Of a DNA stretch of 64,000 bases, positions 28,307-28,670 are shown piece after piece. Both the position numbers and the translations under genes were made by a program. The stretch is taken from NCBI RefSeq assembly GCF_000027125.1, contig NC_017626.1; one strand, written 5' to 3'. This DNA is from Escherichia coli 042 (GTDB taxonomy: Bacteria > Pseudomonadota > Gammaproteobacteria > Enterobacterales > Enterobacteriaceae). Position 1 is the stretch's first letter. Every line of letters starts with the position of its first letter. The notes below the pieces were generated by a model, which searched no databases, was not told the origin of the DNA, and saw only the letters and a program-made list of their open reading frames with translations.

Positions 28307-28544
28307 ACTGACTCCTTAATTGCGTTTGGTTTGACTTATTAAGTCTGGTTGCTATTTTTATAATTGACAAATAAGAATACTGCCAATTGTTATAAGGCAT
28401 TCAAAATCAGGCAACTAGCTGTCAAATATTAAGAGAATTTAACTCACTAAAGTAAGAAGAAGATTAAAGAGTCTTAAACATATTTCAGAACAATCAGATT
28501 TATAAATTTGAAAATTATTATAACGGAAGGGTATACAAAAAAAG

Positions 28545-28626
28545 TAATTTTGCTGGCGACTGCGAAACGGCATTCGCATTAGCGGTGAAGTTTGCCCCCA
28601 CCCAGCTGCTGCAATTACTGCTCTAA
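28545..28626 (+). pseudogene. ydeJ: Possible 3' remnant of ydeJ (CinA/PncC-like); most of the gene absent
   Basis: Short frame ending ...FAGDCETAFALAVKFAPTQLLQLLL* resembles CinA-family C-termini. The ydeI-dcp spacing is only 364 bp, versus roughly 830 bp expected if a 172-aa ydeJ were present. Confidence 0.3.
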
Positions 28627-28670
28627 CCAGGCTGGCCTGGCGATATCTCCAGGCCAGCCATTGGTGGTGT

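Follow-up and report, generated by a model that had tools for sequence, protein, structure and literature searches.

A ydeJ gene-loss allele between ydeI and dcp in Escherichia coli 042, left by a 475-bp deletion and present in ~30% of complete E. coli genomes

YdeJ of Escherichia coli K-12 (NP_416055.1, annotated as "PF02464 family protein YdeJ") is a 172-residue protein made up of a single CinA domain, which scores 162 bits on Pfam PF02464 and 329 bits on NCBIfam NF002972. It shares the PF02464 domain with its paralogue PncC (YgaD), an active NMN deamidase, and reaches 145.6 bits on the nicotinamide-nucleotide amidase model NF002975, under the cut-off of 212. YdeJ has been described as a PncC paralogue that carries the changes Y58F and N60D and is inactive as an NMN deamidase, within a lineage showing mild gene decay (PMC3855486). 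In Salmonella, the ydeJ promoter is reported to be sensitive to supercoiling, and deletion of the gene, renamed rdsA, to result in more negatively supercoiled DNA (PMC7387798). The product name given by NCBIfam and PGAP to the NF002972 family is "2-oxo-tetronate isomerase". In the literature, 2-oxo-tetronate isomerase is OtnI (EC 5.3.1.35; YgbM/b2739), a protein different from YdeJ; we found no experimental basis there for the name as applied to YdeJ, which may be an annotation error.

We analyzed a 64-kb stretch of the E. coli 042 chromosome (the window; all coordinates refer to it unless stated otherwise), in which the ORF listing gives the order dgcZ, ydeI, a 364-bp gap and dcp. Over 20 kb, the genomes nearest to the window are 99.4–99.6% identical to it, and none is identical. 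The gap is preceded by ydeE (25142–26329, plus strand), mgtS (26456–26551, plus strand) and dgcZ (26769–27665, minus strand). Its left boundary is ydeI (27914–28306, minus strand), an intact 130-codon gene for a BOF/OB-fold periplasmic stress protein that shares 98.7% nucleotide identity with K-12 ydeI and is labeled ydeI in the annotation of the nearest genomes (WP_000671737.1). Its right boundary is dcp (28671–30716, minus strand), an intact gene for an M3-family peptidyl-dipeptidase with 97.5% nucleotide identity to K-12; it encodes 681 residues counted from the K-12-equivalent ATG, spans 2,046 nt in both the window and K-12, and is likewise annotated as dcp in the nearest genomes. The genes ydfG and rspR come after dcp. 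In SW070912, the nearest complete genome, the annotation gives ydfJ as a pseudogene truncated at its N-terminus; after it come ynfT, ydfK, pinQ, tfaQ and a gene for a phage tail protein, a prophage-like segment in appearance (L012 14340–19999, which would equal window positions ~34340–40000). The only Rfam match in 26300–29000 is MgrR/STnc560, an Hfq-binding sRNA (26545–26757, minus strand; 276 bits, E = 2e-64), located between mgtS/mgtT and dgcZ, where the K-12 annotation places the sRNA MgrR.

The first-pass annotation had proposed that a 172-residue, CinA-like ydeJ lying between ydeI and dcp in K-12 is largely deleted here, leaving 364 bp (28307–28670) with no ORF of 60 or more residues. 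Each part of this proposal held. The longest ORFs touching the interval encode 51 residues (28245–28400, minus strand) and 46 residues (28439–28579, minus strand). The MG1655 record has the order dgcZ (b1535), ydeI (b1536), ydeJ (b1537, 172 residues, plus strand) and dcp (b1538), with ydeJ starting at a GTG codon (L001 4774–5292), and its ydeI–dcp interval measures 837 bp versus 364 bp in the window. Pairwise and multiple alignments of the ydeI–ydeJ–dcp region resolved the difference into one clean gap, corresponding to NC_000913.3 1,624,737–1,625,211 (L001 4738–5212; 475 bp), with both flanks colinear with K-12 at 93–96% identity, a configuration far beyond chance. The missing segment comprises the 36 bp preceding the GTG start codon, codons 1–146 and one base, the first, of codon 147; of the 519-nt coding sequence, 440 nt (85%) are gone, along with the start region. 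To the left of the gap, 28307–28546 is retained intergenic DNA, colinear with MG1655 (L001 4499–4737), which combines the upstream region of ydeI with the former far-upstream region of ydeJ. A tblastn search of the whole 64-kb window with K-12 YdeJ recovered residues 147–172 at 28546–28623 (77% identity, E = 1.7e-7) and no other similarity with E < 0.1, indicating that ydeJ has not moved elsewhere within the window. A single gap, colinear flanks and a leftover in-frame coding fragment together make this a deletion-derived pseudogene, and we regard it as nearly certain that the interval is a ydeJ gene-loss allele produced by one ancestral 475-bp deletion. Since ydeI and dcp are intact on both sides, the absence of YdeJ is the only direct consequence.

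The deletion junction lies at 28546–28547 and reads ...AAAAAGTAA/TTTTGCTGG... (in wider form ...ACAAAAAAAGTAA/TTTTGCTGGCGAC..., the slash marking the junction). A 1-nt "A" makes the breakpoint ambiguous by one base, and junction microhomology amounts to at most 1–3 nt (GCA/A in K-12). K-12-homologous sequence flanks the junction directly, with no IS element or IS terminal repeat at this position in the window. The lack of an IS together with such short microhomology suggests that the deletion arose through illegitimate recombination or replication slippage and not through transposition.

To determine allele counts, we used 5,426 complete RefSeq E. coli genomes throughout. Of these, 3,618 contain the 461-bp core of the deleted segment (3,607 at a coverage of at least 80%), including K-12, O157:H7, O103:H2 and strain C. 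The junction was detected with a 50-mer centered on it, accepting 0–3 mismatches; the word length of 28 nt exceeds either half of this probe, so that intact alleles cannot seed a match. The probe matched 1,629 genomes (~30%), all over at least 80% of the query: 736 scored 99% or higher, 894 scored 95–99% and one 90–95%. The remaining 179 lack the deleted segment and also gave no junction match. The junction is exact in GN25, AF206 and SW070912 and carries one mismatch in CU39ES-1 and SMS-3-5, that of the B2-type genome CU39ES-1 being a single G-to-A change. Carriers also include one O18:H1 strain and one O25b:H4-ST131 strain, the latter examined for the ydeJ junction only. An assembly or sequencing artefact of the window would require the same junction to have been produced in 1,629 independently completed genomes, and it was read directly in GN25, AF206, SW070912, SMS-3-5 and CU39ES-1; we give this explanation practically no credence. 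One junction with few substitutions and almost no microhomology, shared by 1,629 genomes, points to a single origin of the ydeJ deletion, which would have been followed by vertical descent or recombination.

A further deletion is nested with the first in some lineages. CU39ES-1 (NZ_CP082777.1; L003 3015–3223) has the same ydeJ junction and, in addition, lacks 504 bp equivalent to window positions ~27999–28503, from about codon 31 of ydeI to ~40 bp left of the ydeJ junction. This second deletion removes most of ydeI together with its upstream region, leaving a ydeI remnant of 90 nt, and 1,038 of the 5,426 genomes, Nissle 1917 included, show full coverage of its junction. Because the genomes with the additional ydeI deletion have the same ydeJ junction, the ydeJ deletion came first. 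Subtracting these genomes leaves roughly 590 (~11%) with the window-type allele, in which ydeI is intact and ydeJ deleted. According to its annotation, CU39ES-1, the one genome read for this purpose, also has frameshifts in dgcZ and mgtT, and the whole dgcZ–ydeI–ydeJ block looks eroded in it. IS1 is inserted in the residual ydeI–ydeJ spacer of AF206, away from the deletion junction (L004 3638–4335), and in strain 08_3418, which has an intact ydeJ, an IS1 copy stands in place of ydeI and the 5′ part of dgcZ (L011 2445–3445). IS1 is thus active at this locus in other strains, and the block decays independently and by several routes.

The direction of the event was established from outgroups. The order BOF (ydeI)–CinA (ydeJ)–Peptidase_M3 (dcp) is found in E. 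fergusonii, in a divergent Escherichia lineage whose YdeJ has 87% protein identity to K-12, and in Salmonella enterica, where an extra small KGG-domain gene lies between ydeJ and dcp. In that divergent lineage, ydeE and mgtS are separated by two further genes, for a rhodanese and a DJ-1/PfpI-AraC-type regulator, neither of which is present in K-12 or the window (L009 282–1746). A protein search returned YdeJ homologs from E. fergusonii, Salmonella bongori and S. enterica, and also from Citrobacter, Klebsiella, Enterobacter, Lelliottia and Kosakonia. The presence of ydeJ in all three outgroups, combined with the in-frame 3′ remnant in the window, shows that ydeJ is ancestral and that the window allele is a derived deletion. 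A bare presence/absence polymorphism could also be read in reverse, with the short interval as the ancestral state and ydeJ gained by insertion in K-12-like lineages. An insertion, however, cannot leave 25 codons, a stop codon and a stem-loop of ydeJ in the "empty" state, all of which the window retains, and the gene occupies the same position in E. fergusonii, Salmonella and the divergent Escherichia lineage. Insertion in K-12 is accordingly rejected as exceedingly improbable.

The ydeJ remnant itself spans 81 nt (28546–28626, plus strand), as delimited by tblastn, NF002972 and PGAP, and consists of two bases of codon 147, codons 148–172 and the stop codon. It includes the short frame ending ...FAGDCETAFALAVKFAPTQLLQLLL plus stop (28549–28626, plus strand) that had been noticed in the first-pass annotation for its resemblance to a CinA-family C-terminus; this frame is the true C-terminus of YdeJ, matching residues 147–172 in tblastn and positions 148–172 of NF002972. 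By position it is the ydeJ locus, lying between ydeI and dcp and convergent with dcp. As a gene, it is devoid of a start codon, a ribosome-binding site and the core of the CinA domain. The remnant scored 22.1 bits on NF002972, versus a cut-off of 201, with only profile positions 148–172 matched, and a Pfam search with its 25 residues returned no match (PF02464 cut-off 23.5 bits). Thus, neither the full-length match nor the intact ORF with an initiation region of a functional YdeJ/CinA family member is found here.

Comparison with K-12 revealed differences at 7 of 80 nt in the remnant, five nonsynonymous and two synonymous, a number too small for a selection test. The nonsynonymous changes are V to A, L to F, R to K, L to P and A to T, and all five replaced residues are identical among K-12, the divergent Escherichia allele and E. 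fergusonii. The B2-type remnant has three of these five changes, suggesting that decay went on after the lineages split. Taken as a whole, the changes are consistent with neutral decay of a pseudogene.

Between the ydeJ and dcp stop codons lies a G+C-rich stem-loop (28630–28659) that is conserved in K-12 and was left untouched by the deletion. The fold of 28615–28675 has a predicted energy of −30.5 kcal/mol (z = −4.83), and none of 200 shuffled sequences was as stable. The convergent ydeJ and dcp genes probably share this element as their terminator; a simple terminator scan did not flag it, and a promoter/terminator consensus scan of 28200–28760 gave counts no higher than those of shuffled sequence and is not used here as the basis of any regulatory claim. 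In the retained spacer, identity to K-12 falls from 95.8% in the half next to ydeI to 84.3% in the distal half, with window positions 28427–28546, on the ydeJ side, at ~84% versus 96–99% for the adjoining segments. The same stretch is highly diverged, with a 13-bp indel, in the lineage that has an intact divergent ydeJ, which indicates that it evolves fast independently of the deletion.

We also considered that the deletion might have created something functional, either a small ORF spanning the junction or an orphan transcript, convergent with dcp, that would start at a surviving ydeJ promoter and extend through the remnant and the stem-loop. A 24-codon ORF with a TTG start does span the junction (28508–28582), and the retained DNA contains a promoter-like site on the plus strand (28331–28358, TTGACT-16-TATTTT) that is identical in the K-12 alignment. 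However, a single such match is the shuffled expectation (mean 1.1), ORFs of this size occur everywhere in the ORF listing of the window, and an Rfam scan of 26300–29000 at E values up to 1 found nothing inside the ydeI–dcp interval. Moreover, the changes in the remnant are mostly nonsynonymous, and the promoter-like site is itself taken out by the 504-bp deletion in 1,038 genomes. A functional product of the junction therefore appears highly improbable, and we retain the reading of the interval as a gene-loss allele.

Under this reading, the 475-bp deletion, probably a single ancestral event, took 36 bp of upstream DNA, the start codon and codons 1–146 of the 172-codon ydeJ; of the gene, only a nonfunctional tail of 25 codons was left, followed by the stem-loop. 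The allele would then have been inherited, or spread through homologous recombination, to reach ~30% of complete E. coli genomes. Selection for the removal of YdeJ/RdsA, and later of YdeI, would fit the high allele frequency (30%), the second deletion at the same locus in 1,038 genomes and the dgcZ and mgtT frameshifts in one of them. The more negatively supercoiled DNA of the Salmonella ydeJ mutant (PMC7387798) indicates that loss could have a phenotype. Lineage expansion alone, however, can give a high frequency, and weak constraint on the gene fits both its fast evolution (66% amino acid identity to K-12 in E. fergusonii, 57–64% in Salmonella) and its description as a decayed, NMN-deamidase-inactive paralogue (PMC3855486). 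We consider adaptive loss unlikely. It is slightly less probable still that the dgcZ–ydeI–ydeJ block underwent stepwise, selected erosion in some lineages, first through the 475-bp ydeJ deletion and then through the 504-bp ydeI deletion, in which case loss of the RdsA ortholog might shift global DNA supercoiling in these lineages and be one contributor to what sets their physiology apart.

The loss of ydeJ is already known at the annotation level. In GN25, AF206, SW070912, SMS-3-5 and CU39ES-1, PGAP calls this 81-nt stretch an incomplete pseudogene without its N-terminus; the label in SMS-3-5, GN25 and SW070912 reads [quoted passage not shown]. Searches of the literature for ydeJ in connection with pseudogenes, phylogroups or deletions turned up no description of the loss. 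Given that ~30% of complete genomes share the deletion and that the pseudogene is already annotated, this is ordinary lineage-specific gene loss: an old, common deletion allele of a weakly constrained gene. As a structural finding, such a routine pseudogene carries little weight. Its interest lies in the identity of Salmonella YdeJ as the supercoiling regulator RdsA, which makes the deletion lineages natural nulls for that gene. These nulls, ~30% of complete E. coli genomes, with Nissle 1917, one ST131 strain and SMS-3-5 among them, are ready material for asking whether E. coli has an RdsA function at all and whether losing it has consequences. In addition, the nested ydeJ and ydeI deletions can serve as simple typing markers for this locus.

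Compared with the described systems, the Salmonella ydeJ/rdsA gene is intact and syntenic, a CinA-domain gene between the ydeI homolog and dcp, whose product is 57–64% identical to K-12 YdeJ and from which alone the supercoiling phenotype is known; the orthology of Salmonella STM14_1830 to ydeJ is suggested by gene name and synteny. With K-12 ydeJ, the window locus is orthologous, its flanks being colinear and its remnant corresponding to residues 148–172 plus the stop codon; it differs in having lost the start region and codons 1–146, and with them any Pfam match. The closest counterparts are the annotated pseudogenes ECSMS35_RS29765 in SMS-3-5, R2X35_RS11825 in GN25 and ACVF48_RS12215 in SW070912, from which the window differs in nothing substantial.
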